Below are positions 16,120 to 46,371 of a DNA stretch of 56,310 bases, piece by piece (position 1 is the stretch's first letter; the number at the start of each line of letters is the position of its first letter). Origin of the DNA: Nemertoderma westbladi (Eukaryota > Animalia > Xenacoelomorpha); contig JAUCBJ010000239.1 in the NCBI GenBank assembly GCA_032718475.1, forward strand, positions 1-56,310, read 5' to 3'. A model generated the notes under the pieces. That model saw only the letters and a program-made list of their open reading frames with translations. It made no database searches and was not told the origin of the DNA. Made by a program: the position numbers and the translations under genes.

Positions 16120-18750
16120 AAGAAAACTTGCCACCTCCATGCAGCATAAAGGAGGTGCTCCCTTTGGCTGCAGAGACCCTCTTACAGGGCAAATCTGGTC
16201 CTGTAAATATGACCCCCTTCGTTCTGGGATAAGGACGCCCTTGGTCCTGGATTAAGGACGCATATACTTGGCTGCAGGGGTATATGGCCTGGCCAGGCAG
16301 ATGATGATCTACTAATGGCTGGTCAGTAGTAGTGTTTTCATGACCACTCTGAGTGCACCTGCGACCTGCACCTGGCAGCAGGGGTACAGGGCATTGCCCA
16401 GCAGATGAGCTGCACAGCCAATGGTGGGTCATGTGCGCGCGTCAGCATAGGTATGGGTGATGTGCCTCATATCTGACTCCACAGCGACACCCACCCTGTG
16501 GTATGGCAAACCAGGGTGTGGTACTGTATTTGTCCCGAGAGGTGACTCAGCAAAAAAGCACGCCCCAACCCCCACTATAGATTACATTAGTAATGCGCAG
16601 GTCCGGCAACTAGAGGCCAGTGGAATTACCGGACACAATTGGCCTGACATGCGTCAGTTATCTCAAAACGGCTGCCTGTCTCACCCCCTACTGGAGAGAG
16701 AGCGGCCAACAGTTCTGTGAGTCCCTTTCCTGATGACCTTTCTGGCCCAAACCCTGGGTCACCAGGGAGGCCAGATTGTGAGGGAGAGAGTGATTCTGGA
16801 GTTGGAGGCTACTCTCATGTTCCACCCCGACCAACCAAGCCATTGGTGAATCTGAGGCAAGTCACTAGACCTGCCTCAGTTAACACCCTAACACTCAGGT
16901 CCCCAAATGCGACAAGGTGAGCAGACTGCCTCGGCAGATAAGCTTTCTCTTAACGCAGTGGGTGTTCAAGAGCACCGAATGCAGACTGGACAGACTGATG
17001 AGGTTCTGATTAAGGACATGGGGGCGGCACTCGCCCTCGCATCAGAAGATTATAGTGGCAATGGTGGAATTGGTTTATTGATGAATCCAACTGCACATAC
17101 AGCATTGGATAAAATAGACCAAATCTCTAACAGCATCATCCATTGCCACTTCTCATGTTCTGGAAGACTGGCTAAGAAGTTTCCTAAGGTGGTTCTGATT
17201 GTGTACTACTCTCCAACTTGTGTTGCCACTGTAGAGGTGGAATATTTCTACCACAATCTACAAGCAGCTACCGATGGAGTGGATCAGCATGCATTCTTAA
17301 CATTCCTGGGAGACTTTAATGCAAGTCTGCATCAATCACCTACATCCCCTGGGTCTACACCCATAGTGATAGTGTTAACCGAAATTCCGTCCATCTACAG
17401 GATTTAATCTCTGAAAATGGATTGTTTTCGGCTGGAACCCAGTTCAAGAAGCGAACTGGAAAGCTATGGACTCATAGTGGACCCAGTGGTCACAAGTCAA
17501 GCCATATTCTGTTTCGTAGTAAATACAGGAGCTTTATTCAAGACTGTAATGCATTTACAGTTCGACCCTTCACCAGTGATCAACGCCTTATTGTGGCCAA
17601 GGTAAGACTTAGTCTGCGTGCTAGAAGAACAACGAAATCTGTCTTGCCGCGGCATGACTGGTCCTCTCTGTTGCAACAGCCAAATGTGAGATACAGCTTC
17701 ACACTACAGCTGAGCAACATGTACAGTATGAGGTTATTGTTTCTGAGGTAGCAGATCACTGCGAGGGCTACAGTATACTGCCTTCACAGAAGCAGTTAAG
17801 TTAGCAGCTGCTGAAACAGTTCCTGTATACCCTCGTAACAGGAAAAGGGCCCCCTGGGCTGACCACAAAATTCCGAAATGCCGAAATTACCTCTATAAGG
17901 CGCAGAAAGAGTCCCGACTCAAACAGACTACAGTGGCCAATGCAGTTCAAGCTGCATCTAGGTCCCTGTACAGGCAGTACTCTGTTTATCTACAGGAGCT
18001 TATAAACCAACATGTTGACGCCATCAATAATGCCGACCACAGCAGGCAATCATCCCAGGCACATCTACTTGCTTACAGTACTGGGAGGAAAAGCCAACCA
18101 ACCACCAAGGTTAAGGTAGAATCACCAGCCGATCGGCTCAATGGTTGGATGGCCCACTTTGAAAAGCTCCTCAATAATGACAGGATATTGCCCGATAACT
18201 TTATAGAAGTAAAAGTGTCTGAGTCTGTACTCCCAGATATTCCCATTGGCGATGTCTCCTTTCCAGAAGTGTAGGTTGCTGCAAATATCATTAAGACCAA
18301 TCGTGCCAGTGCCAGTGGAGTATATGGTGTTCCACCTGAGATCTTTAAAATACCCGAGTGGTTAAAGCGCATCTATCCCATCATAGTAGACATGTACAGA
18401 ACAACAAGAGTCCCACAAGAAATGAAAATAAATAAGTTGGTGCCAGTTCCCAAGAAGGGCAACTTAATTAACACTCCATGGTTCTTTTCGGGGAATGTCA
18501 TTGATCTCGATTGCTGCAAAAAATATACAATAGAATTCTATTAAATTGCATCAGTGAACCCATTGAGAGACTGCTCCATGGAAATCAGAATAGGTTCCGT
18601 AAAGGTCTTGGGACCATGGAGCAGGATCGACCAGGATAATTGAAGAGTTATCAAAAAAGAAAGACAGGCACCTGGCTGTTATCTTTGTTGACTTCTACAA
18701 CAAGGCCTTTGATTCAGTCTGACTGTATGTACGAACTGTATGTTCAGCAT
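16120..18750 (+). mobile_element. Decayed RTE-type LINE, 5' part (GC-richer 5' UTR, AP-endonuclease, start of RT); left boundary approximate
   Basis: Frameshifted pieces AVGVQEHR, GGIGLL, YSPT, LGDFNA, WTH, SDQRL, VPVPKKGN; 18525..18750 aligns to the minus-strand LINE RT. Confidence 0.9.
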
Positions 18751-19901
18751 TGTAAAGGCTTTTGCGGATCTAGCTAGTTATTTTCCCCGCAAAGTACTCT
18801 GTGTTTTAGTGGATATAAAGAGCCATTTCTTCTGTATGTGTGCTTTAGCGGACATAACTAGCTGTGTACTTTAGCGGACATAACTAGCGATCTTATGTCG
18901 CAATAAGCCAAAATCCTCTTGATACAGTGTAGTTACCATGACGACATCTAACAGCTGATATGTCCACGTGTAACATTTCTTTGTTCCTTGTTCTCTCTTT
19001 GTTCGGTCGACCAATCAGAGCGTTTTTTGACTCTGTGTTGGAGATTGTATACAGAAACTCATGAATTGAGTCAGTATGTGTATTTTGTCCACAGCCAGAA
19101 GACCGGCTTTGGAGTTACTGTGTTTCAGGCTTTAGCTAAACATTAGTAGGCTTTGGTCATAGAAACGTATAACTGTTATCAAACCAACTCAGTACATATG
19201 CATTATGCTTTCACCGCATTATTTCACTGCTATTTATGGTTTATTCGGTTATTAATTATATCAGTTGATGGAATCTTGTTATATTTGGATAATATCTATA
19301 AATAATCAGAAAACCCCAATCTTCTTGATATACTGAAGGTTAGAGAGACCGGTTACATATAACAATTGCGACTTACATTAAAGTGGTTTTGGAGTGAATC
19401 TAATGCTATTTCATAGGCACTACATGAGTCGTTTGCTGTTCTCTTTATATGTGACTAAAATTAGTGAAGGTCGGCAGATCGGTGTGCAGCATTGTGCAGT
19501 AGTGTGCATGATTGTGACTGATAACAAAGCATCTCCTAAAGAATGCGCTTTATACGTGAATCCATAGCCATCCCGTTGTGTCTAGTGTAAGTCATAACTC
19601 TGTTTACATATTTAGAGCGCCACGTCCTAGAGGAACTGTTAATATTTCCCGAAAGTGAATAATATTGGTCAGAGATTATATATTAACAATCAGTCGAATA
19701 ATACAGTAGGCCTACACCGCAATAAGGTCAAAGCTTCCGAATCCAGTCTCCCGGGTATATCCAGCGGGTGAATGGTCGCGCATAGACTGGCTTCGGCTAA
19801 TGTAGTGTATCAAATACTCGTCATAGGCTAAAGTCGATTTATAATCTAGAAGACATCCAAATTTGGCAGGTTAAACTGCTAAAGGTCTGAAAGCGCGAAC
19901 A
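18751..19901 (+). repeat. 5' LTR of element A (1151 bp)
   Basis: TGTAAAGG...GCGAACA; differs from the 3' LTR by about 5 substitutions and one 4-bp indel (by eye). Confidence 0.97.
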
Positions 19902-19912
19902 ATAACAGTTAT
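19902..19912 (+). promoter_or_regulatory. Non-tRNA primer-binding site of element A (ATAACAGTTAT), complementary to LTR 19169..19179
   Basis: No TGG after the LTR; exact reverse complement ATAACTGTTAT lies inside the LTR. Confidence 0.7.
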
Positions 19913-20182
19913 TGCTTCTGTATTGCAGTAGGCAATAAAGCTGAAGTACCGGTCAACTGGTACCCGCAGTAGACCTGACTGCCTAACTACCCGAACCGGT
20001 ACTTACAGCAGTACAGGTACAGCAGTATTATTCGATTTTGATAATTATATACCGGTAGGTCTTAATAAGTAATCGGGGACGCCTGGCTTTTATTGGGATT
20101 TTACTTAGGCCTATTTCTGTCAGTTTTATTTATTTGTAGGCTAATATTGAGCAGAAGACGTGTAAGCCTGCTCAGATTGTAC

Positions 20183-20761
20183 AGATAATTTGTAGGCTGG
20201 ACTGTTGTCTGACTGTTGTTAAGTCTGAAGAGATTGCGGTGTGTGTAGAGTGTATGTCCGATAAAGTACTAGTTAGGAAAGTAGGGGCTTCCAGTGCTGT
20301 GAGGTAAATCCCCTCGAAAGAATAAGTCGTACTACTCGGTTAGAACGCATACTAACTAACCATTTCGGAGTCTGCATATACTGTAGTTTGTTTAGGCTTG
20401 ATAGTAGTCTGCCAGAGTTTGGTCTGTATTTTGTATGTGTAGTCTGTACGGGTAGCGTAATATTTCTTATTTAGATAATTTGTAGGCTGGATTGTTGTCT
20501 GGCTGTTGTTAAGTTTGAAGAGATTGCGGTGTGTGTAGAGTGTATGTCCGATAAATTACTAGTTAGGAACGTAGGGGCTTCCAGTGCTGTGAGGTAAATC
20601 CCCTTGAAAGAATAAGTCGTACTACTCGGTTAGAACGCATACTAACTAACCATTTCGGAGTCTGCATATACTGTAGTTTGTTTGGGCTTGATAGTAGTAT
20701 GCCAGAGTTTGGTCTGTATTTTATTTGAGTAGTCTGTACGCGTAGCGTAATATTTATTATT
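20183..20761 (+). repeat. Two ~290-bp direct repeats in the 5' leader of element A
   Basis: agataatttgtaggctgga... begins at 20183 and 20473; copies are highly similar. Confidence 0.92.
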
Positions 20762-22100
20762 CAGAGTTTATGCGATTATTCGCAACATTCACAACCCCAA
20801 GTTTATTCCTACAGTAATTGTGCTTGTTATACATACCGTTATAGTTAAATTAACCCCGGTACTACATCAGGGCTGCTTGGCGTAGGTAAAGACTGGTGAT
20901 TTTGTGCCCCGGTCACTCCAGTAGATACCGTGGTTCTTTTAGCTGTACAAGTATTTCTAACTGCTAGTTATTTGTTGTATAAGTACTTGTACCTAATTGA
21001 GGGTTTAGTGTACAGTGCTTTCCGAAAGTAATTAGTGTGTAGGCAGTATATTTGTGTTGTAAAGTGGTTAATAGGCACGTTGGTTCTGGTAGACCGCGGT
21101 AATTAACTTCTAGGTAGGAACACTCCGTGGTACATAACGTAGTACTTATAGCAATATGGCTATAAGTCGTCAGACGGTGGTATTTTTCCTATCTGGACAA
21201 CGCAGTATATTTACTACTGCTTAGTTATTTTCAAATACCGTAGTATCCTGTCTGTTTGTAATAACCAGATATTCTAACCCTTTGTGAGGCTGGTTTGTAG
21301 ACTTCTTGTAAAATTACCCTAAAAATTCGTACGTGTAATTTTTGTGTTTATTTAGAGATTGTAATCTCACCCCGAATTGTACATAATTTGTAGTATTAAG
21401 TAACTTAGGTAAATTAGAATTATTTGTTTTAGTGTCCAACAAGTAGCACTTCACTGAGAGCGTACCGCTTCTGTGCAGTGACTCCTTCCCAGAAATAATA
21501 ACATTTATTTCAAATATTGACAAAACCCATTATAGGGATATAAATATTATAAATCAACTCAAACCGATTTATAAAATAGTAGGCCTGTCATACATCAATT
21601 AGGTCTTAATGTCAGTTGGACTACTGCTTAAATAACGGTAATCAAGTAAAGTAAAGTAACCAAGTAACCCCAAAAAAAAATTCAGAAATTCAATTATTCT
21701 AAAATAATTGACATACCGGTATTTACGATAGGCTTATTATATTTATTTCTATAAATTTAGGCTGAAATTATATAGCGGTATTCTGTAATTAATTCTAGTC
21801 CATAATTATACTTATATATACTATAAGTGTAAGCTGTATACCGGTATTCACGATAGGCCTATTATATATTTGTATATATTTGTGCTGAAATTATTTACTG
21901 GTATTCTGTGACAAACCTAGTCTGTAATAATACTTATATATATACTATAGGTGTATACCGGTATTCTAATATATTGTATATATATCACATTACATAGAGT
22001 AACGATATCGGTAATTAATTACTAGGCTAACGGTGATACTGAATTACTAGACTTGCTGTAACTGTAATATAGCAGTAGGCATTCAACTATACAATCAAAC

Positions 22101-25100
22101 ATGTCTGACACAAAACAAACACTGTCAGATAGTCTCTTAGAAAGTGCTAGAATGAGTGTTAGACAGGGTCTTAAAAAGATCTGGGACTCAGCTAAGAGTA
22201 TAGAACGTCTGAGACCAAAGTCCAAGTCCACTCCTACTATAAGCAAGGTCATCCCTACAGTAGTAGTGTCAGACCCTAGGCTAGTAGAGCACCATAGGTC
22301 TATCATAGGCACTAGGGCTCAAGTTAAGCGGGACCAAGAAGCAGCAGAACAGCAGCAACACTCGAGCCGAGAACTTATTTCTCAGCGGCCCGACAGCTCC
22401 AGTAGTACGGATACTGTAGAGCTGACACCCGAGCGCGGAGCAAAGATGGCAGATGCGGTTTATTCGGATCCCCTTCTCATCCTTCCTGCAGCCGTACTCA
22501 CTAGGGTATTGATTGCGGTGGAGGAACACCAGATTGATTGGGCGAGAAGTAAGCGATCGACCAAGGATAGTTATGCGGGATATACAAGGGAAGAACTGAA
22601 GTCTATTGTCGAGTCGCAATGGAACTTCCCCGGACCCGGACTCCCGTTTGACTTATCGGAAGCTGCCTGGGAAGACATACACAAGATGGGAGTGACAAAA
22701 GAAACCAGCGATCCAGCTGTGTGGAAGAGGTCAGCAGCCGGATACGTACAGGGATTCTTCAGCTCTATGGAGCGATTAGAGGAACAATTGTTTCGACAAC
22801 CACAAGGACCTCAAGAGCAGGGAGAGCTGCTTTATCAAGTTAGAATTCTAAGAATCAGACTAATCTTATCTGCCTTTGAGGAGGCTTCGAAAAGAAGACA
22901 AGACACGTCGTTGCAAGTTGCCGTAAAGACTTGGTTTCAGCGGGTGAGTCTCCAAGTTCAAAGAACTGCCCCGTGGAAATCTCAGTTGGATGAGCGCTCA
23001 ACCCATGGAGAATCAACAGACGCTACCTTTTCCCAAGTGGAAAGCGAAGAGACAGCAGAGAAACCGCATAAGAGGGATGCTATTGACATCTATCTGTCAG
23101 ACTATCAATGATTTGTAGGTGACGAAGAGTTGAGGAGACGGCTGGATGGACTTAGCCCTAATAGTGAAGGAGCCAAACTTGTGTTGGACGCAATCGATGC
23201 GGATATGTTAGCTGCGAACCAAGCTAAATTCGATGAAAGCATCCGCATCGTTAAGGTTCAAGAGGAACAAGTAAGGAAAAAACGTATAGAAGACAGAAAG
23301 ACAGCAGCAGCGGCAGAAGCAGAAGCGGAAAGAAAGGCAGCAGAAGTGGAAAAGAAAGCGGCAATGGCAGCGGCAGAAGCGGAAAGAAAGGCAGCAGAAG
23401 TGGAAAAGAAAGCGGCAATGGCAGCGGCAGAAGCGGAAAGAAAAGCGGCCGAAGCGGAAAGAAAAGTGGCCGAAGTGGAAAGAAAGGCGGCAATGGCATC
23501 GGCAGAAGCAGAAAGAAAAGCGGCAGTGGCAGAAGCAGAACGGAGGGCATCTGAAGAGACAACACAACTAGAGTTGGAAAATCTTCAAGAGAGGCAGGAC
23601 AACTTCAATAAACAGTTAACAGCTAGTCAAATGCAGATGATGAGTCGATCTACTCCCAAAAGACAGGGATTTACATCCTCTGATGAAGGCGATACCACCG
23701 ATCCTGAAGGCAGAGGAGATAGATCTCGTCTAAGTAGGCGTAGAAGAATGTCCCACTGTCAGAAATTGCCTGATTTGCCCCCAGCTGTTAGAAGGCAACT
23801 AGCTAGCACGGACTTAGGTAGTACAGAACCCACAGACCAAATAATTAAAATAGAAAGACTCCCTACTATAATAGATGAGCCTGAAGTAATTAGGCCTGTT
23901 CTCGAAGCCACCCCTTCGGTGATAGAGACACCTGTACTCCCAGAACCTACCTCTAAATTGCCTTTGCACAGCACTAAGCTACCTGTGCCCCACAGAACCA
24001 TCCCTGAAAATGTTCATGTCCTGGACTCCGAGCGAAATATTAATGATTTGTCGCCCGTTGTCCCTCATCCGCCCGCTACAACGTTGGCGGCTCCCGCTTC
24101 GGCGGTCGAGTGGGTGGATGAGAGACGACGGGGGATGGATCTCCTGCTCGGGCAGATGCAGGAGACTGTTCAGCAGTTCAAGGGCACAGTAAGGGAAAGT
24201 AGGTTAGAGTTGCAAGAAGTGCAGCAAAGTATCGCGTTAGAACGCGATAAATTAGTAAATACCCAAAGAGGTATACCACCACCCCCGGTAACAATGTGTC
24301 AACCTGTTAGGTCTGAAGTATCTCATGCGCAAGGTGTGGAGCCTACACGCATCTATACTGCTAGTGAAGTGGAAACTCCTATAGTAAACCCTATTAAGGG
24401 TAATTATAAACCTGTTGACAATGATATTCCATAAAGACTTGATAATAATCCGAGAAATTTATATACCGATAACTCGATATTAAATAACACGATGGCCCAA
24501 GAAAGTTTTATGCGTCAAATGGCTAGAACCGAAGCCCGTCAAGCGGTCAAGGTGGGAGAGATCGTCAAGTTCAATGGAGATGAGATGAAATGGTTACCTT
24601 TTAATGAATATTACAAAGATAACATACAGAACTCTGTGCTATCTAACGGAGAGAAACTGAGATTCCTCATCGAGTGCTTGGAAGGATCTCCCAAGTTAAT
24701 GGCGTTAAAGTTTATTGGACATCCAGATGGATTAAGACAAGTTTGAGATACACTGAACATCAGGTATGGTAATAGGACTAACATAGCTAGGTATTTATAT
24801 GCGAAATTAATGGCGCCCCAAAAGTTTCTTAGCAGCGGGATTATAGAGTTTTCCGACGAGATTCAGGAGATCTGTAGACAACTAGATTGGTTAGGTAAGT
24901 CTCATGAATACCAGAATTCTATGGTTGTAGGAGCCTTAGTATCTAATTTGCCCAAGGGCGGAGTAGGTACACGCTGGGACAAGACAGTGTTATATATGAT
25001 GGAACAACAACGAAGAGATCCTACCATGGCTGATCTCATGTCATTCTTAGATGGAGAGGTAAAATTACAGCTCCTAAAGCAGTCCAGAGAGAAGACACCG

Positions 25101-27047
25101 GAAAATAAGGTAAGTGAGAAACCCGTTTCTAGGAGAAAGGTAATACCAGTGTGTTATACAGACGACGGCGAAAGCCAGGCTTCTCAAGAGGAAGACAGCG
25201 GGAAAGACACTGAAAGATCTTACTATGACAACAAAGCGCCTAAGGACGTAAGTAAATTCAAGTCTCGAACCAATGACAGGAGAGAACAGGTAAGAAAAAC
25301 TCCTCCTACGTCTCCTAAGAGAATTCATGTAAGAAAGCCCGAGGAAAGAACGAGTGTGCACAACGTTACCCAAAGTAAGGTAAGTAACATCAAACCAAAA
25401 TGTGTGCTGTGCGACGGGCCCCACCGTTTAAGTGCGTGTGATGAATTCCTAAAGAAATCATTAAAGGATAGACGGGAAGTCATGTGGGATAAGCGGTTGT
25501 GTTATAATTGCCTCAGACAAGGACACCAACGGCGAACCTGTTACTCCGACGCAAGGTGTGCGAAGTGCGGCGCAAAACATCATATCTTGTTGCACACTGA
25601 ATTCGAACGAAACAGCCCGAGTCAGGTAAGTGAGTCCGAACTACATGTCCAATTCAGTGATGTGAACGACACTGACCAAAGTTCTGAGATGGAAGGATTC
25701 TATACGGACGAATTCTCCGACGAAGACGAATCCTGTTACATGATAAATACCGCAGTGTATCGAGCACTTACGTATGAAAAGGACACCGACAGCGAGCTCA
25801 CCCTAACTACTTCTGACCGACAACCATCTTGGAAAGCACCAACTTCCAATGTAGGAATCCGAGAATTTCCCGTAGTGCAGCTAAGGGTCCACGGACCTAA
25901 AAGGAGTTATATAGTGAACGCCCTCCTTGACTCCGGTAGCACAGGAACATTCATCGACAAAGAACTAGCCGAAGACATCTTTGCTGGACAACCCAAGTTC
26001 CGAACTAAATTAAACATGTCAGGAATTATGCAGGTTTGGAAATCTACAGTAATAGCGGATTATTATGTAGGTGCGTTGTCCACCCCCCAGGATGAACTAG
26101 GAGAACATAGTATAAGGTCAGTAAAAATGGTAGCGATAAAGAACTTCGCCACCAGCCAAGTAGAACCTTATAACTGGGATGAGGACGATTCCACCCAGCA
26201 GCTTAATATACCTAGATTCAACACGGATTACCCTGGAGTGCAAATACTCATTGGCCAAAATGCGCATGAAGCGCTTGAGACATTGGAGAAACGGCCTGCT
26301 CAACCGCAACCATTACAAGCCTATGCGGGAAGAACTAGAGTAGGTTGGTACTTTACTGGCCCTTCCCGTAGAACTCTAATGGAAAGGTTACCAAAAGAAC
26401 GGGTATACCAAGTAAGTGAATGGGAAGCGGAGAGCAGTGAGGTAGACGACCCAACTGAGGGAACACCATACTCCTCAGATAATGACGATATTAACTCCAA
26501 TGTAGATCAATGGAGATATTGCCCCGAGACGATTAATCTAGCCGACATCGCTTCCAGAGGAGCAACTCCTCAAGAACTGACAGATACTCCAGACTGGTTA
26601 GGTGGACCCGACTTCCTAAGTAAAGAGGATGAATGGCCTCCTCATCTTACCACGGCTGAGATTAGACAAGCCAAGGGAGCGGAGAAAGACAAACCTAAAA
26701 CCCGGACGTGTAAATCAAGGTTATTTAAACCCGTGATAGATCTGTCTGTATTACACATTGCCAGGGACGACGCTGTGGATCTAAACTCCCCCACCGCTAA
26801 CCGATCTGTTGTGGAGATCAGAGAGAGAGACTGGAGATCTGGAACACCAGACGTCTCGCCGGGACTCTCACCTCTCCTGCCGGGAGTGATGGACCACTAT
26901 AGATCCTGGAATCGGCTTTGTAAGGCCGTCGTGTATTTGAAGCGATGTTTCTATCGTCACTATTCCAGGACGAAGAGGAAACCTGGAATTGTCTTCGAGA
27001 CACAGCAGCTCAATCGCCCAGTTGGTCGTTTATGTTTACTGGAATGA
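22101..27047 (+). pseudogene. Gag-aspartic protease-Pol-remnant polyprotein of element A, broken by three in-frame stops
   Basis: Track ORFs 22101, 23130, 24492 and 24810 share one frame; stops at 23109, 24432 and 24744 correspond to R, Y and W in element B. Motifs: KFNGDEMKW/LSNGEKLRFL (BEL Gag), three Cys-His knuckles, ALLDSGS, RTRVGWYFTGP, NLADIASRG, WLGGPDFL, RPVGRLCLLE. Confidence 0.92.
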
Positions 27048-28779: not shown

Positions 28780-30267
28780 ATGATTGAGTTGATAGAAGAT
28801 GATCTTGGTATCAGGGAGCGATATACTCTACCTTTACAAGCGTTTGTTGATAGCTTGATACGCGGCGACGCTGGTCCAACTACTACGGAGGACGATGGTC
28901 GTTATATCGAACCGCCAATGTCCCAAGAACAACTTACGCGTGAATTGGACTATAGAAAATTCACCGCTCGCTATACGCATCGTAATGGTACGTATATGGA
29001 CTTCTTAACTACTGGTCATCCTATCGACCTACACGATACGAACGATATAGACACCGAAAGGGAAATGGTTTTATTTAAATATCATACCCAGCGGAAGCGG
29101 AACGATAAACCGAGAATGGAACACGAGAATTCTATTCGAAACAGACTCGAAAGAGAAGACGTTGAAGAGCCGGATAAACGCAGCGACTTCAACGATTATC
29201 TGGAATTCCTGAGAGAAACATATCTCAATATTGCCAGTCAACAAAATCTAGAAACTCGATATCCTCCAGGTATATATCATGATCCTATGATAGAACTCAA
29301 ACGACTCTATTTCACTATGATGTATCTTACCGCCGATCGACCGCTACCTGTCATCCCAGATAGCTTCGAACAGATGGAGGAATACTGTAAAACCGTATAA
29401 ATATCACCCGCGTTTCCCCTACAAGACGTGCGTCTTTGGTATTATTGCGATGAATGCCCAAGACCCAACTAACAAACGGAAAGACATAAACATCCGCGGA
29501 GACGTTGCTTTAAACACGGTTTTACTCGCTATATTTACGGGAGTTTCGAGCGAAACTTGTTCGATGTATCACCTACGCTCGTTCGATTCAAACGATCCTT
29601 AAATAAACCTATGATCAGAGTTCCGGAATACTCGGTCAGACCTCCTCATTCCCTAGTTAGACCTCAGACTCTTGATCCTAATAGTATCACGGATCCTCCC
29701 GAGCTGTACTCACTGCTCAAAGATCTAGTGTTACCTGAACAATATTCGCCCATCTTACCTAGTCGGATTGGGACGCGGACATTTAATATCGCCATTCAAC
29801 CGTATCATCGTCCCTGTTTAACCCGATATAACCTGTCACCGAGGCGGAGGAGAGAGTTGTACGAAACGCGTTGGACACTATTCGTCAAAAGATCGGAAAA
29901 TGAACCTACAATTGTTTAGAGAAACGTAAATTGCAGTAGCAAGTCCAAGCAGTAAACGAATTAACTTTATCTCAGTTCGATCAGGAAATTCAGAATCTCT
30001 AAGAAGATATCGAACTTGGACGACCCTATTCTCTGCAAGAGTTTTGGACGAACGCATTCAACGATAAGCGGAGGAAAATCAGCTCGAGGAGAAGCATATT
30101 GAAATGGACGAGACATCGACCGTAACCCTAAACCTTCAGATGCAATTGTATTGCACCCTTTACCCAAGGGTTATAGCCCTCCTAGTAAAGTGGCTCGCCC
30201 CAAAGAGAAAAGGACTCTTGCTAGCCTCAAAAAACTGCGTAAACGCCGTCCGCGCAAGAAAAACTAA
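28780..30267 (+). pseudogene. Second (3') ORF of element A, unknown function, interrupted by stops
   Basis: 28780..29400, 29557..29919 and the terminal ...PPSKVARPKEKRTLASLKKLRKRRPRKKN* (stop 30265..30267) share a frame; N- and C-termini are homologous to element B. Confidence 0.7.
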
Positions 30268-30345
30268 CTGTTTAGAGTATTTTTATATTTTAGAAACTGT
30301 GATTTTTTATATTTTATAGAATTAAATCCCATTTTCTGGGAGCGG

Positions 30346-31500
30346 TGTAAAGGCTTTTGCGGATCTAGCTAGTTATTTTCCCCGCAAAGTACTCTGTAGG
30401 TGTTTTAGTGGATATAAAGAGCCATTTCTTCTGTATGTGTGCTTTAGCGGACATAACTAGCTGTGTACTTTAGCGGACATAACTAGCGATCTTATGTCGC
30501 AATAAGCCAAAATCCTCTTGATACAGTGTAGTTACCATGACGACATCTAACAGCTGATATGTCCACGTGTAACATTTCTTTGTTCTTTGTTCTCTCTTTG
30601 TTCGGTCGACCAATCAGAGCGTTTTTTGACTCTGTGTTGGAGATTGTATACAGAAACTCATGAATTGAGTCAGTATGTGTATTTTGTCCACAGCCAGAAG
30701 ACCGGCTTTGGAGTTGCTGTGTTTCAGGCTTTAGCTAAACATTAGTAGGCTTTGGTCATAGAAACGTATAACTGTTATCAAACCAACTCAGTACATATGC
30801 ATTATGCTTTCACCGCATTATTTCACTGCTATTTATGGTTTATTCGGTTATTAATTATATCAGTTGATGGAATCTTGTTATATTTGGATAATATCTATAA
30901 ATAATCAGAAAACCCCAATCTTCTTGATATACTGAAGGTTAGAGAGACCGGTTACATATAACAATTGCGACTTACATTAAAGTGGTTTTGGAGTGAATCT
31001 AATGCTATTTCATAGGCACTACATGAGTCGTTTGCTGTTCTCTTTATATGTGAGTAAAATTAGTGAAGGTCGGCAGATCGGTGTGCAGCATTGTGCAGTA
31101 GTGTGCATGATTGTGACTGATAACAAAGCATCTCCTAAAGTATGCGCTTTATACGTGAATCCATAGCCATCCCGTTGTGTCTAGTGTAAGTCATAACTCT
31201 GTTTACATATTTAGAGCGCCACGTCCTAGAGGAACTGTTAATATTTCCCGAAAGTGAATAATATTGGTCAGAGATTATATATTAACAATCAGTCGAATAA
31301 TACAGTAGGCCTACACCGCAATAAGGTCAAAGCCTCCGAATCCAGTCTCCCGGGTATATCCAGCGGGTGAATGGTCGCGCATAGACTGGCTTCGGCTAAT
31401 GTAGTGTATCAAATACTCGTCATAGGCTAAAGTCGATTTATAATCTAGAAGACATCCAAATTTGGCAGGTTAAACTGCTAAAGGTCTGAAAGCGCGAACA
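30346..31500 (+). repeat. 3' LTR of element A (1155 bp)
   Basis: Direct repeat of 18751..19901, preceded by ttttctgggagcgg. Confidence 0.97.
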
Positions 31501-33944: not shown

Positions 33945-35211
33945 TGTTCGCGCTTTCGAAGACCTTTAGCAGTTTAACCTGCCAAAATTTATATGTCTTT
34001 TCGTTAATTAAAACCACTTTAGCATACGACAATAATTTATGCTAATACGCAAAACATTAGCCGAAGTCAGCCCATGCGCGATCATTCACCCGATGGATCT
34101 ACACCCGGGAGACTGAATTCGGATGCTTGAATTGTATTATTACAGTGTAAGGTTGCAGTGTATACCTAATGTATTATTCGATAGATCGTTAATGATTAAT
34201 CTCTGACAGATATTATTGGCTTTCGGGAAATATTAACAGTTCCTTTAGGACGTGGCGCTTTACCTATTTAAACAGAACTAAGACTTATACTAAACGCAAC
34301 GATACTGCTGCTGATTAAAGTATAAAACGTATTCTTTAGGAAATACTTTGTTACCAATTACAATCATACACACTATTCTGCCGACAGTCAGTATATTTGA
34401 TCACACATAAAGAGAGCAGTAATTGACTCGCGTAGGGTCTGCTAAATAACATTGGATTCAATACACACCACATTAATATAAATCGCAATTGTTATATATA
34501 GCCGGTCTCTCTAACCTGTAGTGTTATCAAGAAAATTGGGAATTGGGTGATTTATCCGTATTATCCAAATAGCAATATTTCCATCAACAAATATTTACAA
34601 TTAATAACTGACGGTAAAATAACAGTACAAACCATATGATTAATGCAAAAGTATCAAGATTAGTTAATGAGTATGATTATCAAGTTAAATTAGTTCGGTA
34701 ACAGTTTATACTTTCGATAATTCAAGCAGTTCTGCAGTTCACGGTACAGCAGTATTGGTTACAAAATGCCGGTGTTTCTGGCTTAGACAGCAATAACCAC
34801 AAAAGTGACAACTCTCTCTCTCTCTCCAGTCCGAGCGAACACTCTCCATGATTTCCAGGAAAGCTACACGTCGACAGGAAAAATCGCCCTGATTGGCCCA
34901 AGCCAAACAAAGAACCACGCTGCCAATGGCTGTTTCCATGTCAGCAACCAGCTGCTAGATGTCGTAATATGAATCATCACGGCTAAGCTGTGAAAGGTGG
35001 TTTGTGTATTACAAGTTTTTGTCTTACCATGTCCGCTAAAACACGTATATAGCAGAATGATTTTTATGTCCGTTAAAACACCTGTAAAGGTACCTTGCGG
35101 GCGAGGGGAATATATATACAGTTAGAAAACCTTTTTTAGAGTATTCCAGCGCCGGGGGGGGAACTGGCCAGCCAAGGCAAACGTATCAGTTATCCCACAA
35201 AAGCTTTTACA
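33945..35211 (-). repeat. 3' LTR of element B (1267 bp)
   Basis: Direct repeat of 45105..46371; minus strand reads TGTAAAAG...GCGAACA. Confidence 0.97.
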
Positions 35212-35288
35212 CCGCTCCCAGAAAATGGGATTTAAGTCTATAAAATATACAAAATCACAGTTTCTAAATACAAAAATACTCTAAACAG

Positions 35289-38207: not shown

Positions 38208-41200
38208 TTACGTTATGGAGTCCCTAGATCTTTGTCGAATTAGGGAAGTGGTCGTAGGAAGAGTATCCTGCCTTCCATGGTTTCCGGACAGTTTTCGGTC
38301 TCTTTCCAGTAAACCTAAGCGACCAGCTGGGCGATTAGGCTGTCGTGTTACTTCCGCCGCTCCCTTGGCCTGTCTAATCTCCTCAGTGGTAAGATGAGGA
38401 GGCCATTCATCTTCTTCTTTACTTAGGGAGTCGGGTCCACCTAACCAGCCGGGAGTATCTATCCGTTCTTGAGGAGTTGCTCTTCTGGAATCGATGTCGG
38501 CTGGATTAATCGTCCCAAGACAATGTCTCCATTGATCTACATTGGAGTTAATATCGTCATTATCTGAGGAGTATGGTGTTCCCTCAGTTGGATCGTCCAC
38601 ATCACTGCTCTCCACTTCCCCCTTTACTTGGTATACCTGTTGTTGAGGTAATCTCTCTTTGAGAGTTCTACGGGAAGGGCCAGTGAAGTACCAACCTACT
38701 CTAGTTCTTACCGCATAGGTTTGTAGTGGCTGTGGTTGAGCAGGCCGTTTCTCTAATGGCTCGAGCGCCTCATGCGCGTTTTGGCCGATAAGTATTTGCA
38801 CTCCAGGATAATCTGTCTGGAATCGAGGTATCTTAAGATGTTGGACGCTCTCATCTTCGTCCCAATTATAAAGGTCTGCTTGAGTAGTAGCAAAGTTCTT
38901 TATAGCCACCATTTTTACTGACCTTACACCTTGTGTTCCTAACTTATCCTGGGGGGTGGACAACACACCTACATAGTAATCTGCCGTCAGGGTAGATTTC
39001 CAAACCTGCATAATTCCTGACATATTCAATTTAGTCCGGAACTTGGGTTGTCCAGCAAAGATATCTTCGGCTAGTTCTTGATCGATGAATGTTCCTGTGC
39101 TGCCGGAGTCAAGTAGGGCGTTCACTATGTAACTCTTGTTGGGACCATGAACTCGAACTTGCACTACAGGAAATTCTCTTATTCCTATGTTGGAAGTTGG
39201 AACTTTCCAAGATGGTTGTTTGTCAAAAGGAGTTGGAGTAAACTCGTCAGTGTCCTTTTCATCCGTAAGTGCTCGATACACTGTGGTATTTATTAGATAA
39301 CAGGATTCGTTGGCATCGGAGAATTCGTCTGTATAGAATCCTTCCCACTCAGAACCTTGGTCAGTGTCGTTCACATCACTGAATTGGACATGTAATTCGG
39401 GCTCACTTACCTGACTCGGGTTGTCTCGTTCGAACTCACTGTGTAACAAAATGTGATGTTTCGCGCCACACTTTGCACACTTTGCGTCGGAGTAACAGGT
39501 TCGCCGTTGGTGTCCTGATCTGAGGCAATTATAGCATAACCGCTTATTCCACAGGACTGTACGTCTGTCTACAGGGGATTTCTTTAGAAATTCAGCACAC
39601 GCACTCAAACGGTGAGGCCCGTCGCACAGCGCACATTTTGGTTTGATGTTACTTACTTTCACTTGCGTAGTTTGCTGCACTCTCGTTCTTTCTTCTGGCT
39701 TTCTCCCGCGCGTTCTGTTGGGAGACTGAGGAGGGGTCTTAGCAACTTGTTCTCTCCTATTATTGGTTCGAGCTTTGTATTTACTTACGTCCTGGGAGGT
39801 TTTGTCAATATAATAAGACCGTTCGGTGTCTTTCCCGCTGTCTTCGTCTTGGGAAACTTGGCTTTCGCCGTCATCAGTGTAACACACTGGTGTTACTCTT
39901 CTCCTGGAAGTGGGTTTCTCACTTACCTTATTTTCTGATGTTTTCTCTCTGGCTTGCTTGATGAGTTGTAGTCTGACTTCACCATCCAAGAACGACATGA
40001 GATCAGCCATGGTAGGGCTTCGTCGTTGTTGGTCATTCATGTACAACACCTTCTTGTCCCAGCGTGTACATACTCCACCCTTTGGTAAAGTAGAGACTAC
40101 GGCTCCAATAACCATGGAACTCTGGTATTCGTGCGACTTACCTAACCAGTCCAGTTGTCTACAGATCTCTTGTATTTCATCTGAAAATTCTATAATCCCA
40201 CTACTAAGGAAATGTCGGGGGGCTACCAATTTTGTATACAGATACTTAGCGATGTTGTCTTTATTACCATACCTGATGTTTAATGTATCCCAAACTTGTC
40301 TTAATCCATCTGGATGTCCAATAAACTTTAACGCCATTGACTTGGGGGGTCCTTCCAAACACTTGATGAGGAATCTAAGTTTCTCTCCATTAGATAGTAC
40401 AGAGTTCTGTATGCTATCTTTGTAATATTCGTTGAAAGGTAACCATTTCATCTCATCCCCATTGAATTTGACGATCTCTCCCACTTTGACCGCTTGGCGG
40501 GCTTCTGTTCTAGCCATCTGACGCGTAAAGCTTTCTTGGGCCATCGTGTTATTTAATATCGAATTATCGGTATCCAAATTTCTCGGATCATTATCAGGTC
40601 TATAGGGAATATCATTAATAACAGGTCTATAATCACCCTTAATAGGGTTTGCTATAGGAGTTTCAACTTCACTAGCAGTATAGATGCGTGTAGGCTCCAC
40701 ACCTTGCGCATGTAATACTTCAGACCTAACGGGTTGACACAATGTTACAGGAGGCATTGGTATGCCTTTTTGTATATTGACTAATTTGTCGCGTTCTAGC
40801 GCGATACTTTGCTGCACTTCTTGCAACTCTGCTCTACCTTCCCTCACTGTTCCCTTAAGTTGGTGGACAGTCTCCTGCATCTGTCCTAGCAGGAGATTCA
40901 TCCCCCGCCGTCCCTCTTCCACCCACTCAACCGCCGAAGCGGGAGTCGCCAACATAGTAGCGGGCTGACGCGGGACGACGGGAGACAAATTATTGATTTC
41001 TCTCTCTGCTATCTGGACAGGGGTATTTGCATGGACTGTTCCACCGGGTACAGGCAGTGTAGTGCTATGTAAAGGGAATTTAGAGTTAAGCTCTGGAAGT
41101 GTAGGGGTCTCTAGCACAGAAGTGACTTTGGGAACTACAGGCCTAATTATTTCAGGTTCATCGACTATAGTAGGGAGTCTTTTGACCTGGATAAATTGTT

Positions 41201-42848
41201 CTATGGGTCCTGCACTACCTAAATCCGTGCTAGTTAGCTGTCTTTTAACAGCTGGGGGCAAATCAGGCAATTTGCGACGGTAATAGGTTTTTCTACGCCT
41301 ACTTAGATGGGATCTATTTCCTCCGCCTTCAGGGTCGGTAGTATCGCCTTCCTCCGAGGATGTGTACCCCTGGCGCTTGGGAGTAGATTTTCTCATCATC
41401 TGCATTTGATTAGCAGTGAACTGTTTATTTATACTGTCTTGTGTCTCTTGCAGATTTTCCAACTCCAGTTGGGTAGTCTGCTCAGATGCTCTCCTTTCTA
41501 CTTCTGCCACTGCCTTCGCTGCCTTTCTTTCGGCTTCTGCTTCCGCCGCCTTTTTCTTTCTTTCGGCTTCTGCTTCTTTTCTTTCGGCTTCTGCTTCCGC
41601 TGCTCTTGCCTTTCTTTCGGCTTCTGCTTCTGCCATAACTGCCGCCATATCCGCCGCCTTTTGTTCCTCTATCCTTCTTTTCTTTATTTGTTCTTCTCGG
41701 ACTCTAGTGAGGCGGAGTTTTTCATCACATTCAGCTTGGTTTGCGGCTAACATTTCGGCATCGATCGCGTCCAATATAAGCTTGGTTCCTTCACTATTAG
41801 GGGAAAGTCCATGTAACCGTCTCCTCAACTCTTCGTCTCCTAGGAATCGCTGATAGTCGGACAAATAAATGTCGATAGCGTCTCTAGTTCGAGGTTTCTC
41901 GGCGGCCTCTTCGCTTTCCTCTTGAGCAAGGGTGACATCAGTTTGTTCATTGACATCAGTTGGTTCCTCATAGATTGATCTCTCAGCCAGCTGAGATTTC
42001 CACTGGGCTGTTTCCTGTACTTTGCGATCTACTCGATGTAGCCAAGTTTTGACAGCAACCTGCAGCGACGTGTCCTGTCTTCTTTTGGAAGTTTCCTCAA
42101 AGGCTGAGAGGATTAGTCGAATGCGTAGGGTTCTTTCGCGTATTTGATATAGCAGTTCTTCCTGCTCTTGAGGTCCGTGAGGTTGTCGAAACAGCTGCCC
42201 TTCCAATCGCTCCAAGGATTCGAAGAATCCCTGCACATATCCTGCTGCCGACCTCTTCCAAACAGCTGGATCCATTGTATCTTGAGCCACTCCCATCCTG
42301 TGTATATCTTCCCAAGTAGCCTCAGACAGGTCCAACGGGAGTCCGAGTCCGGGAAAGTTCCATTGTGATTCAACAATAGATATCAATTCTTCCCTGGCGT
42401 ATCCCGCGTAATCATCTTGGGTCGCTTGCTTATTCTTCGCCCAGTCGGCTTGATGTTCTTCCACCGCAATGAGTATAGTAGTCAGCACTGTAGCAGGAAG
42501 AGTAAGAAGGGGGTCTGAGTAGACTGTATCAGCCATCTGCACTCCATGTTCGGGAGTCAACTCTACAGTGTCCGAACTGCTGGAGCTATCTGGTCTCTGG
42601 GAAGTAGGTTCTTGACCAAGATGTTGCTGCGATAGGACAGCTGCCTCTTGGTCCCGTTTTACCTGTGCCCGAGTGCCTATGATGGACCTATGGTGGACTA
42701 GCCTAGGGTCTGATACTACTGGAGGGATGACCTTTTTTACAGTAGGAGGTGAGCCGAACTTCTCTATTATTCGCTCCACTCTCCTATCTGAATCACAGAT
42801 AGTGGTCTCGATCAGACTGTCCGACAGGTTTTGCTGAGTGTCAGACAT
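38208..42848 (-). CDS. Intact Gag-aspartic protease polyprotein (1546 aa) of element B, ending in Pol remnants
   Basis: Uninterrupted ORF: EAERKAA coiled-coil, BEL Gag core, CALCDGPHRLSAC / CYNCLRSGHQRRTC / CAKCGAKHHILLH, ALLDSGS protease, QWRHCLGTINPADIDSR...WLGGPDSL...EWP, RPAGRLGLLE. No YxDD or DDE domain. Confidence 0.93.
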   Translation of the reverse strand: MSDTQQNLSDSLIETTICDSDRRVERIIEKFGSPPTVKKVIPPVVSDPRLVHHRSIIGTRAQVKRDQEAAVLSQQHLGQEPTSQRPDSSSSSDTVELTPEHGVQMADTVYSDPLLTLPATVLTTILIAVEEHQADWAKNKQATQDDYAGYAREELISIVESQWNFPGLGLPLDLSEATWEDIHRMGVAQDTMDPAVWKRSAAGYVQGFFESLERLEGQLFRQPHGPQEQEELLYQIRERTLRIRLILSAFEETSKRRQDTSLQVAVKTWLHRVDRKVQETAQWKSQLAERSIYEEPTDVNEQTDVTLAQEESEEAAEKPRTRDAIDIYLSDYQRFLGDEELRRRLHGLSPNSEGTKLILDAIDAEMLAANQAECDEKLRLTRVREEQIKKRRIEEQKAADMAAVMAEAEAERKARAAEAEAERKEAEAERKKKAAEAEAERKAAKAVAEVERRASEQTTQLELENLQETQDSINKQFTANQMQMMRKSTPKRQGYTSSEEGDTTDPEGGGNRSHLSRRRKTYYRRKLPDLPPAVKRQLTSTDLGSAGPIEQFIQVKRLPTIVDEPEIIRPVVPKVTSVLETPTLPELNSKFPLHSTTLPVPGGTVHANTPVQIAEREINNLSPVVPRQPATMLATPASAVEWVEEGRRGMNLLLGQMQETVHQLKGTVREGRAELQEVQQSIALERDKLVNIQKGIPMPPVTLCQPVRSEVLHAQGVEPTRIYTASEVETPIANPIKGDYRPVINDIPYRPDNDPRNLDTDNSILNNTMAQESFTRQMARTEARQAVKVGEIVKFNGDEMKWLPFNEYYKDSIQNSVLSNGEKLRFLIKCLEGPPKSMALKFIGHPDGLRQVWDTLNIRYGNKDNIAKYLYTKLVAPRHFLSSGIIEFSDEIQEICRQLDWLGKSHEYQSSMVIGAVVSTLPKGGVCTRWDKKVLYMNDQQRRSPTMADLMSFLDGEVRLQLIKQAREKTSENKVSEKPTSRRRVTPVCYTDDGESQVSQDEDSGKDTERSYYIDKTSQDVSKYKARTNNRREQVAKTPPQSPNRTRGRKPEERTRVQQTTQVKVSNIKPKCALCDGPHRLSACAEFLKKSPVDRRTVLWNKRLCYNCLRSGHQRRTCYSDAKCAKCGAKHHILLHSEFERDNPSQVSEPELHVQFSDVNDTDQGSEWEGFYTDEFSDANESCYLINTTVYRALTDEKDTDEFTPTPFDKQPSWKVPTSNIGIREFPVVQVRVHGPNKSYIVNALLDSGSTGTFIDQELAEDIFAGQPKFRTKLNMSGIMQVWKSTLTADYYVGVLSTPQDKLGTQGVRSVKMVAIKNFATTQADLYNWDEDESVQHLKIPRFQTDYPGVQILIGQNAHEALEPLEKRPAQPQPLQTYAVRTRVGWYFTGPSRRTLKERLPQQQVYQVKGEVESSDVDDPTEGTPYSSDNDDINSNVDQWRHCLGTINPADIDSRRATPQERIDTPGWLGGPDSLSKEEDEWPPHLTTEEIRQAKGAAEVTRQPNRPAGRLGLLERDRKLSGNHGRQDTLPTTTSLIRQRSRDSIT

Positions 42849-44164
42849 GTTTAGTTATACAGTTGAATGTCTACTACTATAATTTCAGTTAAAGCAAATC
42901 TAGTAATTCAGTATAACCACAAGCCTAGCGATTTATTACCGGTACCGTTACTCAGTGGAACGTGATATATATACAATATATTAGAATACCGGTATGCTTA
43001 TAATATATAAGTATTATTACAGACTAGATTTGTCACAGAGTACCGGTATATAATTTTAGCACAAATATATATATATATAGTAGGCCTATAATGAATACCG
43101 GTATACAGCTTACACTTATAGTATATAAGTATAATTCTGAATTAGAATTAATTACAGAGTACCGGTATGATTTCAGCTCAAATTTATAGAAATAAATATA
43201 ATAAGCCTATGGTAAGTACCGGTATGTCAATTATTTTGAGAATAATTGAATTTCTGAATATTTTAGGGCTACTTGGTTATTTTAACTTACTTTGTTACCG
43301 TTGTTTAAGCAGTAGTCCAACTGATAGTGAGACCTAGTTTTGTATGACAGGCCTACTATTTATAAATCGTTTGAGTTGATTTATAATAGATATATACCCG
43401 TTTAAAAAGGGGTTTTGACAATATTTGAAATAAATGTTATTATTTCTGGGGGTCACTACACAGAAGCTGAGCGCTCTCAGTGAAGTGTTATTTATTTGAC
43501 ACTAAAACTGATAATTCTAATTTACCTAAGTTACTTAATACTACAAATTACTTACGATACGGGTGAGATTAATTCTCTAATTAAACACAACAAAATATTA
43601 CGGACGAAATTTTTAGGGTAATTTTACAGGAAGTCTACAAACCAGTCTAACAAAGGGTTAGATTTCTGGCTATTACAAAGGACAGGGTACTACGGTATTT
43701 AAATAATAAGTAGTAGTAAATATATTGTACTGTCCAGATAGGAAAATACCACCGCCTGACGACCTATAACCGTATCGCTATAGGTACAACGTTATGTATC
43801 ACGGATTGTTCCTACCCAGAAGTTAATAGAGCTAACGAAGGTGCCTATCAACCACTTTACAACACAAATATACTGCCTACACTAATTACTTCGGAAGGCA
43901 CTGTACTCTAAACCCTAAATTAGGTACAAGTACCGGTATAACAAATAATCAGTAGTTAAATATACTTGAACAGTTAAAAGAACCACGGCATCTGCTGGAG
44001 TGACCGAAGCACAAAGTCGTCAGTCTTTACCTACGCCAAGCAGCCCTGATGTAGTACCGGGGTTAGTTTAACTATAACGGTATGTATAACAAGCACAATT
44101 ACTGTAGGAATAAACTTGGGGACATGAATGTTGCGAATAATCGCATAAACTCTGAATAATAAAT

Positions 44165-44720: not shown

Positions 44721-45091
44721 ATCTGAACAATCTGAGCAGGGTCACACGCCTTCTGCTCAATATTAGCCTACTAGGAAATAAAACTGACAGAAATAAGTAA
44801 GCTCCAAAAGAAACAAGGGGTGTACAGTCCCTAATCTCTTAAACAGCCTACCGGTATACAATAATCAAAATCGAATAATACTAAAAGTACTTGTACAGCA
44901 GTACCGGTACCGGTGATGACAGTTAGGCCTACTGACCTACAAAGTACCGGTTCAGTTTTACCAGTCACTACGGTATTTTGCAACCTTATTGCCTACTGCA
45001 ATAAGATTGTAAACCGTTACTGTTCTCCAGAACAGTATTAAACTGTATTTAATGCCTACACTTGCAACCTTATTGCTTACTGCAATAAGAT

Positions 45092-45104
45092 TATAAACTG
45101 TTAC
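45092..45104 (-). promoter_or_regulatory. Non-tRNA primer-binding site of element B (GTAACAGTTTATA on minus), complementary to LTR 45858..45870
   Basis: Plus-strand TATAAACTGTTAC (45092..45104) and GTAACAGTTTATA (45858..45870) are exact reverse complements. Confidence 0.72.
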
Positions 45105-46371
45105 TGTTCGCGCTTTCGAAGACCTTTAGCAGTTTAACCTGCCAAAATTTATATGTCTTTTCGTTAATTAAAACCACTTTAGCATACGACAATAATTTAT
45201 GCTAATACGCAAAACATTAGCCGAAGTCAGCCCATGCGCGATCATTCACCCGATGGATCTACACCCGGGAGACTGAATTCGGATGCTTGAATTGTATTAT
45301 TACAGTGTAAGGTTGCAGTGTATACCTAATGTATTATTCGATAGATCGTTAATGATTAATCTCTGACAGATATTATTGGCTTTCGGGAAATATTAACAGT
45401 TCCTTTAGGACGTGGCGCTTTACCTATTTAAACAGAACTAAGACTTATACTAAACGCAACGATACTGCTGCTGATTAAAGTATAAAACGTATTCTTTAGG
45501 AAATACTTTGTTACCAATTACAATCATACACACTATTCTGCCGACAGTCAGTATATTTGATCACACATAAAGAGAGCAGTAATTGACTCGCGTAGGGTCT
45601 GCTAAATAACATTGGATTCAATACACACCACATTAATATAAATCGCAATTGTTATATATAGCCGGTCTCTCTAACCTGTAGTGTTATCAAGAAAATTGGG
45701 AATTGGGTGATTTATCCGTATTATCCAAATAGCAATATTTCCATCAACAAATATTTACAATTAATAACTGACGGTAAAATAACAGTACAAACCATATGAT
45801 TAATGCAAAAGTATCAAGATTAGTTAATGAGTATGATTATCAAGTTAAATTAGTTCGGTAACAGTTTATACTTTCGATAATTCAAGCAGTTCTGCAGTTC
45901 ACGGTACAGCAGTATTGGTTACAAAATGCCGGTGTTTCTGGCTTAGACAGCAATAACCACAAAAGTGACAACTCTCTCTCTCTCTCCAGTCCGAGCGAAC
46001 ACTCTCCATGATTTCCAGGAAAGCTACACGTCGACAGGAAAAATCGCCCTGATTGGCCCAAGCCAAACAAAGAACCACGCTGCCAATGGCTGTTTCCATG
46101 TCAGCAACCAGCTGCTAGATGTCGTAATATGAATCATCACGGCTAAGCTGTGAAAGGTGGTTTGTGTATTACAAGTTTTTGTCTTACCATGTCCGCTAAA
46201 ACACGTATATAGCAGAATGATTTTTATGTCCGTTAAAACACCTGTAAAGGTACCTTGCGGGCGAGGGGAATATATATACAGTTAGAAAACCTTTTTTAGA
46301 GTATTCCAGCGCCGGGGGGGGAACTGGCCAGCCAAGGCAAACGTATCAGTTATCCCACAAAAGCTTTTACA
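45105..46371 (-). repeat. 5' LTR of element B (1267 bp)
   Basis: Direct repeat of 33945..35211. Confidence 0.97.

Follow-up and report, generated by a model that had tools for sequence, protein, structure and literature searches.

Candidate Tf1-like self-priming of reverse transcription in two non-autonomous BEL/Pao-type LTR elements of Nemertoderma westbladi

Introduction

In the Tf1 retrotransposon, the primer-binding site (PBS) directly follows the 5' LTR and is complementary over 11 bases to a site within the LTR itself (passages of PMC7175516), and the primer is freed by RNase H cleavage after the paired stretch (excerpts of PMC7175516 and PMC5341516). Priming by Tf1 is reported, in part of a preprint, to require three duplexes, namely the primer:PBS helix and one helix on either side of it, which adjoin the PBS and are formed with LTR sequence (bioRxiv 10.1101/2022.12.06.519325). 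Self-priming has been described for the Tf1/sushi group and predicted for Tj1 (passages of PMC4600332), and it has also been predicted for the plant element Tcn1 and for the TAR lineage of Ty1/copia elements (Houba, Osr-1), in the latter from sequence alone and within a group whose relatives use tRNA (excerpts of PMC6317226). Whether self-priming is ancestral or has arisen repeatedly is a question raised in a passage of PMC3601003.

Described BEL/Pao elements have a tRNA PBS, either of 18 bases and complementary to tRNA-Arg or tRNA-Gly at the 3' end (PMC8742986) or for tRNA-Tyr (a passage of PMC4580426). For the Belpaoviridae family as a whole, the ICTV profile states priming by tRNA, and it describes the family's replication as poorly understood (PMC8742986). 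Self-priming in any BEL/Pao element was not found in the open-access literature searched: passages of PMC3601003, PMC5443660 and PMC3286476 give none, and the BEL/Pao surveys PMC3118150, PMC554778 and PMC6238403 contain none of the priming-related terms looked for. To the first-pass annotation of the DNA considered here, the mechanism was likewise unfamiliar from BEL/Pao elements. In print, self-priming is documented for gypsy and copia groups.

Here we describe two related elements, A and B, in a stretch of 56,310 nucleotides from Nemertoderma westbladi (assembly GCA_032718475.1, contig JAUCBJ010000239.1), which as a whole is referred to as the window. With Belpaoviridae such as Tas and Achilles they share a DUF1759 Gag, a protease, a 5-bp target duplication, TG...CA LTRs and an animal host; unlike the described BEL/Pao elements, they lack a TGG after the 5' LTR, and their PBS matches the element itself. 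In this they resemble Tf1, Tf2, Tj1 and the Tf1/sushi group including plant Tcn1, in all of which the PBS adjoins the LTR and complements a site within it. Fungal GalEa copia elements (passages of PMC5445492) and bivalve TRIMs (passages of PMC6934838) likewise have no tRNA PBS and show conserved pairing near the LTR end; however, that pairing is a local hairpin, and the passages report no LTR complement, whereas the complement in A and B lies in the LTR.

Results

Structure and coding content of the two elements

Self-comparison of the window places the two related LTR elements in opposing orientation, A on the plus strand (18751-31500) and B on the minus strand (46371-33945), each delimited by an LTR pair and a target duplication. 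The 5' LTR of A (18751..19901, plus strand; 1151 bp, TG...CA) differs from the 3' LTR (30346..31500, plus strand) by 5 mismatches and one 4-base gap, and the 5' LTR of B (45105..46371, minus strand; 1267 bp, TG...CA) is identical to its 3' counterpart (33945..35211, minus strand). The 5-bp target duplications are AGCAT for A (18746-18750 and 31501-31505) and GTTAC for B (46372-46376 and 33940-33944). Because the LTR pairs are near-identical or identical within each element (99-100%), both elements are taken from their sequence to have transposed recently. Element A sits inside a fragment of a non-LTR element (18524-18720 and 31501-32049), for which a reverse transcriptase (RT) frame is found at 8367-9704; elsewhere, the window contains an uninterrupted YJU2B/CCDC130 frame (50888-51952; 54-62% identity among the best 120 matches listed, the named ones being from animals to none of which the host is close) and a tandem-repeat array of ~2.9 kb (1634-4560).

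The gag-protease coding region of A (22068..27047, plus strand), which includes a short remnant of the stretch past the Pao peptidase domain, is interrupted by stops at 23109-23111 and 24432-24434. In B the frame is open over 1548 codons (38208..42854, minus strand) and includes a DUF1759 match (E 9e-13), a CCHC region, the protease and the same remnant as A, and PF05380 (Pao retrotransposon peptidase) is present in 21 of the 22 homologues of this gag-protease. Four full-length homologues, when compared with the window, align to gag, protease and one short block of 46-86 residues after the Pao peptidase, and yield no RT or integrase match in A or B. By sequence, then, A and B are to be classed as non-autonomous BEL/Pao derivatives. 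The DUF1759 and PF05380 matches thus bear out the BEL/Pao assignment made in the first-pass annotation, as the missing RT and integrase matches do its supposition that a helper RT/RNase H is needed. No close autonomous relative was found among called proteins, where the best identities range from 21 to 45% and lie mostly near 30%; for the best 150 of 11,585 matches in one search they are 25-43%.

A purine-rich GGGAGCGG adjoins each 3' LTR as the likely polypurine tract (PPT) (30338..30345, plus strand, in A; 35212..35219, minus strand, in B), and together with the TG...CA ends and the target duplications it belongs to the LTR features typical of BEL/Pao elements. The same word occurs three times per element at matching places (26675, 28090 and 30338 on the plus strand; 38364, 37274 and 35219 on the minus strand), and the extra copies are possible additional plus-strand start sites. 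Additional coding sequence, partly shared between A and B and partly unrelated, precedes the 3' LTRs (28765-29919, plus strand; 35289-36514, minus strand), and includes in B a 196-residue frame with a weak, below-cut-off match to a zinc knuckle. Identity between A and B reaches 93% in the ends just before the 3' LTRs (30132-30362 and 35195-35424) and is 81-87% in the other interior parts, which may reflect recombination or stronger constraint near the PPT.

Complementarity between the LTR and the first bases downstream of it

Directly after both 5' LTRs, the TGG expected of a tRNA-type PBS is missing, as the first-pass annotation had stated. In A, the 11 nucleotides from the first base after the LTR onward (ATAACAGTTAT, 19902..19912, plus strand) are the perfect reverse complement of a site within the LTR (19169..19179, plus strand), and in B the same holds for 13 nucleotides (GTAACAGTTTATA, 45092..45104, minus strand) and a site that starts with TATAAA (45858..45870, minus strand); both matches were claimed previously, and their coordinates hold. 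The two LTR segments, here termed candidate self-primer sites, occupy homologous places, 722-753 bases from the LTR end. Since the ends of the LTRs are set independently, by the LTR pairs and the target duplications, the match does begin at the first post-LTR base.

The complementarity is real and well beyond chance. Among 20,000 dinucleotide shuffles each, an 11-base match was reached 20 times with the LTR of A and a 13-base match not once with that of B. Equally long upstream matches were found at 152 of the 36,754 sampled window positions for the length in A and at 77 of 36,676 for the length in B. When offsets of 0-40 bases past the LTR are compared, offset 0 gives the longest match in A as in B, the next independent ones being 8 and 10 bases long, and the flanks past the 3' LTRs, used as a control, match over 6 bases only in A and in B alike. 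The motif in A is near-palindromic and that in B is not, as had been cautioned earlier, with direct-repeat identities of 10/11 and 4/13 and homodimer energies of -5.0 and -1.8 kcal/mol, respectively. The relation common to both elements is therefore the inverted one.

Element B also contains a tandem second copy of the LTR end, the PBS and a leader hairpin (44978..45025, minus strand), 84 bases downstream. Of its 3 differences in 48 positions, 2 fall inside the 13-base PBS copy, and the match of this displaced copy to the primer site is reduced to 5 anchored bases. Joints skipping 89-96 bases within window positions 44956-45096 were seen in contigs of sequencing runs X1, X3 and X5 and mark family members without the tandem PBS-hairpin unit.

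Matched changes between A and B

The primer site and the PBS differ between the elements by one substitution and one 1-base indel, each mirrored on both partners, and the corresponding claim of covariation stands: the PBS begins with A in element A and with G in element B, and B has one additional base. When partners are swapped, the site of A matches the LTR of B over 8 bases and that of B matches the LTR of A over 5. The energies of the primer:PBS duplex behave accordingly, at -10.1 (A) and -13.9 (B) kcal/mol for cognate partners versus -8.5 and -8.2 kcal/mol for swapped ones. The covariation comprises two changes in two copies. In a crude simulation of neutral drift, run at the local A/B divergence, the site of A became a 12-base complement of the PBS of B in 434 of 2,000,000 runs.

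Across the R-U5-leader region as a whole, 7 of 170 mappable pairs predicted from A are compensatory in B, compared with 2.6 expected (28 of 5,000 permutations), and 33 are broken; from B, the figures are 5 of 100, 1.4 expected (46 of 5,000 permutations) and 18 broken. One listed compensatory pair, 19166/19556, is a misalignment by the program.

Predicted duplexes on either side of the PBS

When the primer and the PBS are held open or occupied during folding, both flanking duplexes of the Tf1 arrangement, known as the pretzel, form in A and in B. In A (plus strand), the predicted duplex 5' of the PBS joins 19776-19788 with 19884-19898 (pairing probability 0.92-0.97), and the one 3' of the PBS joins 19710-19734 in U5 with 19914-19933 in the leader (0.67-0.73 with the PBS occupied), the latter having a rival in a local hairpin at 19910-19937. 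In B (minus strand), the corresponding predictions are 45213-45207 with 45113-45107 (0.65) and a 25-bp helix of 45322-45297 in U5 with 45088-45057 in the leader (0.87-0.97), which includes a 16-base U5 insertion that is missing from A and is matched by the leader of B. A predicted closing helix of 12-13 bp, conserved in both elements, pairs 19692-19704 with 20025-20037 in A (plus strand), its core letters being identical in B, where it pairs 45342-45331 with 44881-44870 (minus strand). The U5-leader domains are more stable than 100 of 100 shuffles in each case (z -5.74 for A and -6.96 for B).

Pairing between primer and PBS itself has a probability of 0 in 8 of 8 unconstrained folds, which is partly forced, because the U5-leader helices are crossed by this one and pseudoknots are beyond the program; in addition, the second partner of the primer site occupies it in these folds. 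The zeros from nested folding and two-strand cofolding were therefore set aside, and sums of opening costs were used for the primer:PBS helix instead. Net of these costs, binding of a freed primer to the PBS is predicted at -7.1 (A) and -13.8 (B) kcal/mol, as against -0.8 and -5.0 kcal/mol for the strongest alternative in the top 8, which in B is the drifted second copy of the PBS. The duplex 5' of the PBS is without partner specificity (cognate -17.0 and -14.8, swapped -14.4 and -15.1 kcal/mol), and the U5 of A pairs with the leader of B as well as with its own (-21.9 versus -20.2 kcal/mol). In these models, partner specificity is thus supported by the swaps in the case of the primer duplex, and for the flanking duplexes only in part.

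A competing helix at the primer site

In separate folds of A and B, the primer site is predicted to pair with two stretches that lie 340-390 bases downstream, and the resulting three-way junction is the same in each. In A (plus strand), 19519-19526 pairs with 19174-19181 and 19550-19557 with 19165-19172, with a small hairpin in between; in B (minus strand), 45517-45509 pairs with 45863-45855 and 45486-45477 with 45874-45865. The T-to-C change at the last base of the primer is mirrored in this second partner (19179/19521, T-A to C-G), and the outer helix takes in four bases upstream of the primer site, again with a matched change. The energies of the outer helix are -8.1 and -8.3 kcal/mol with cognate partners and -4.7 and -5.2 kcal/mol with swapped ones, and the stability of the 5' rod domain as a whole is at the level of shuffled sequence (z -1.75 for A and +0.20 for B).

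Because of the matched changes in their pairing, the primer site and U5 are likely transcribed together in one RNA. Such an RNA may, according to the folding models, alternate between one state that hides the primer site and another that primes. Opening the primer site and the PBS would cost 8.1 (A) and 4.4 (B) kcal/mol, against primer:PBS duplexes of -10.1 and -13.9 kcal/mol, so in these models the switch is near balance in A and would probably need the help of a Gag chaperone.

Signals near the putative transcription start

The first-pass annotation had noted a conserved CCAAT-type motif upstream of both primer sites. The motif, CCAATCAG, is indeed present in A (19011..19018, plus strand) and in B (46049..46056, minus strand), but its spacing is variable, at 158 and 187 bases before the primer site. 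A second conserved block, AGCCAGAA (19093..19100, plus strand, in A), lies 76 bases before the site in A and 74 in B, and this near-constant spacing fits a start near the primer site without proving one. The primer site contains a TATA look-alike (TATAAA in B, TATAAC in A), and initiator look-alikes (TCAGT and TCATT) are found downstream; counted from the TATA-like T, they are 21 and 40 bases away. A start exactly at 19169 and 45870 is less favoured, because the four bases upstream pair with U5 and show a matched change, a hint of a start at least 4 bases earlier; from the folding models, the 5' end of the RNA would probably lie a few bases upstream of the primer, except if R extends far enough to let the helix form at the 3' end.

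Two candidate splicing schemes were considered. For a self-primer created by a splice junction, 10,350 donor-acceptor combinations in A and 8,556 in B yielded 0 junction-spanning complements of at least 9 bases, and the contiguous match is already perfect. An intron from the GT before the site to an AG ~400 bases on (19167-19568 in A; 45871-45471 in B) fits 0 of 7 contig joints, which come from runs not established as RNA.

Copies of the family in sequencing runs

The LTR is present in 6 of 9 listed sequencing runs, all searched as contigs and none recorded as RNA. With 9,414, 2,340, 208 and 77 contigs on 1.5 kb of the LTR region of B in four of these runs, the family is very abundant in the host, whose genome thereby provides many natural pairs in which covariation can be studied. 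In run X1, a 10-contig group among the 24 loose ends considered out of 289 represents a third leader after the same LTR end, which differs from A and B within its first 11 letters and also has no TGG. Such differences, present between the PBSs of the recently mobile A and B and extended by this further leader, would not be permitted by a fixed tRNA end. No letter variant falls in the PBS or the primer site of B among the 40 variants considered out of 192, which says little on minor variants; 12 of 41 indel variants in the contigs were also considered.

Run X5 shows T>C at 94 places of window positions 45102-45805, compared with 11-17 in the other three runs, the probable source of the excess being one 734-letter contig with 120 differences. 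If X5 were RNA (its listing as DNA is a guess), this would correspond to A-to-G on the sense strand, as from heavy A-to-I editing of a folded LTR RNA. In the same run, summed contig depth drops between window positions 45665 and 45715, directly past a GATAAA at 45716 (in A, TATAAA at 19297), being ~10,000 on the upstream side and a few hundred on the downstream side. This step, as a lead only, would be compatible with a poly(A) site were X5 an RNA run. Runs X1, X3 and X6 have no such step, and contig depth cannot reveal RNA ends.

Metagenome contigs gave 0 matches by DNA pattern and 517 by protein pattern, 0 of them confirmed; viral contigs gave 3 chance 17-base matches without further similarity and 81 unconfirmed pattern matches; and Rfam and ARAGORN found nothing in the window.

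Discussion

Tf1-like self-priming with a helper reverse transcriptase is the best reading of elements A and B, and one that we regard as quite probable. The sequence itself shows the complementarity, anchored where the LTR ends, and the substitution and indel that are mirrored on both partners; it also shows that RT and integrase have been lost and that the elements transposed recently. The self-priming proposed in the first-pass annotation is thereby retained and gains the flanking duplexes, which, like the open PBS, folding predicts; it has to accommodate the competing helix at the primer site, likewise a prediction from folding, of which the annotation made no mention.

By this reading, RNA polymerase II would start at or just before the LTR primer site, and the RNA would be packaged with Gag and with the Pol of the helper, an autonomous relative. 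The primer site would then come away from its U5 partner and anneal to the PBS, with a flanking duplex on either side, and the RT/RNase H of the helper would cut after base 11-13 and so free the 3' end of the primer. Minus-strand DNA would extend through U5 and R and jump to the 3' R, and in the course of plus-strand synthesis the primer would serve as template for the next PBS. In this sequence of events, the start site, the cleavage and the action of a helper in trans are carried over by analogy from Tf1. It is a general feature of LTR replication that the new PBS is templated by the primer during plus-strand synthesis, so an indel could appear on both partners without two separate mutations.

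The same templated covariation is predicted if the primer is derived from the element and acts in trans, as a small RNA or a cleaved fragment supplied by the second RNA of a dimer, by the 3' LTR copy or by the RNA of the helper. Such a source would suit a site that in its own molecule is occupied by the competing helix, and a free primer is calculated to bind the PBS well. The pretzel geometry, however, fits the cis mechanism of Tf1, and a primer shared through the helper is disfavoured, since the primers of A and B each bind the PBS of the other less well (-8.5 and -8.2 versus -10.1 and -13.9 kcal/mol); we consider priming in trans unlikely.

Decidedly unlikely, in our view, is that the pairing is a structural or regulatory switch, controlling packaging, translation or splicing, and that a host RNA such as a tRNA fragment primes. 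The region from R through U5 to the leader is structured throughout, with some covariation (7 versus 2.6 and 5 versus 1.4 expected), and half-tRNA primers are known in copia groups (excerpts of PMC6317226). Against this stand the start of the match exactly at the first post-LTR base in both elements and two forms of the PBS that, differing by a first-base substitution and an indel, a single host RNA cannot fit.

A further reading takes the LTR site for a TATA box, with a start ~30 bases downstream and the post-LTR complement as a by-product. TATAAA in B, TATAAC in A and the TCAGT and TCATT look-alikes downstream would suit it, but the spacing of the latter is not fixed (21 versus 40 bases from the T), the pairing of the site with U5 through matched changes needs both in one RNA, and the matched PBS is left unexplained, which together make this reading very improbable. 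A chance inverted repeat in AT-rich DNA, or an RNA-dimerisation palindrome, might be entertained for the near-palindromic motif of A (homodimer -5.0 kcal/mol), 11-base matches of such a kind being found at 0.4% of window positions, but has a negligible standing given the non-palindromic motif of B (-1.8 kcal/mol), the 0 of 20,000 shuffles and the 434 of 2,000,000 drift runs that reach the matched divergence.

Self-priming within the elements' own RNA thus remains the preferred explanation, and it invites comparison with Tf1. The Tf1/sushi elements are Ty3/gypsy chromoviruses, whereas A and B belong to BEL/Pao by their gag and their relatives and are non-autonomous. The three-duplex pretzel of Tf1 is a point of likeness, predicted for both. 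In contrast to Tf1, the primer site of A and B is predicted to be hidden by a second, covarying partner and lies 722-753 bases from the LTR end, and where the primer of Tf1 is the 5' end of the RNA, the RNA of A and B may start a few bases before the primer. The elements are thus not members of the Tf1/sushi group, their homologues being BEL/Pao polyproteins, yet they likely work alike at the priming step. The TAR lineage differs from A and B in being copia and in plants. A nematode BEL-type element reportedly encodes its own primer RNA.

What is new here is the prediction of both pretzel flanking duplexes in A and B, together with that of a second covarying partner for the primer site. We can further imagine, as a scenario that is quite possible though short of probable, that a BEL/Pao branch swapped tRNA priming for a self-primer and reached the Tf1 pretzel independently, as a third LTR superfamily to do so, that a 390-base R-U5 domain gates priming until it refolds in the particle, and that primer, PBS and U5 partner are under a three-way constraint, all three having shifted in concert from one element to the other.

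Such elements would be overlooked or misjudged by annotation tools for which a tRNA PBS is a requirement. If self-priming of A and B is true, tRNA-free initiation would be found in all three LTR superfamilies, which bears on the question of an ancestral or a repeated origin, and elements of this kind would presumably escape control by tRNA supply and by tRNA-fragment silencing.
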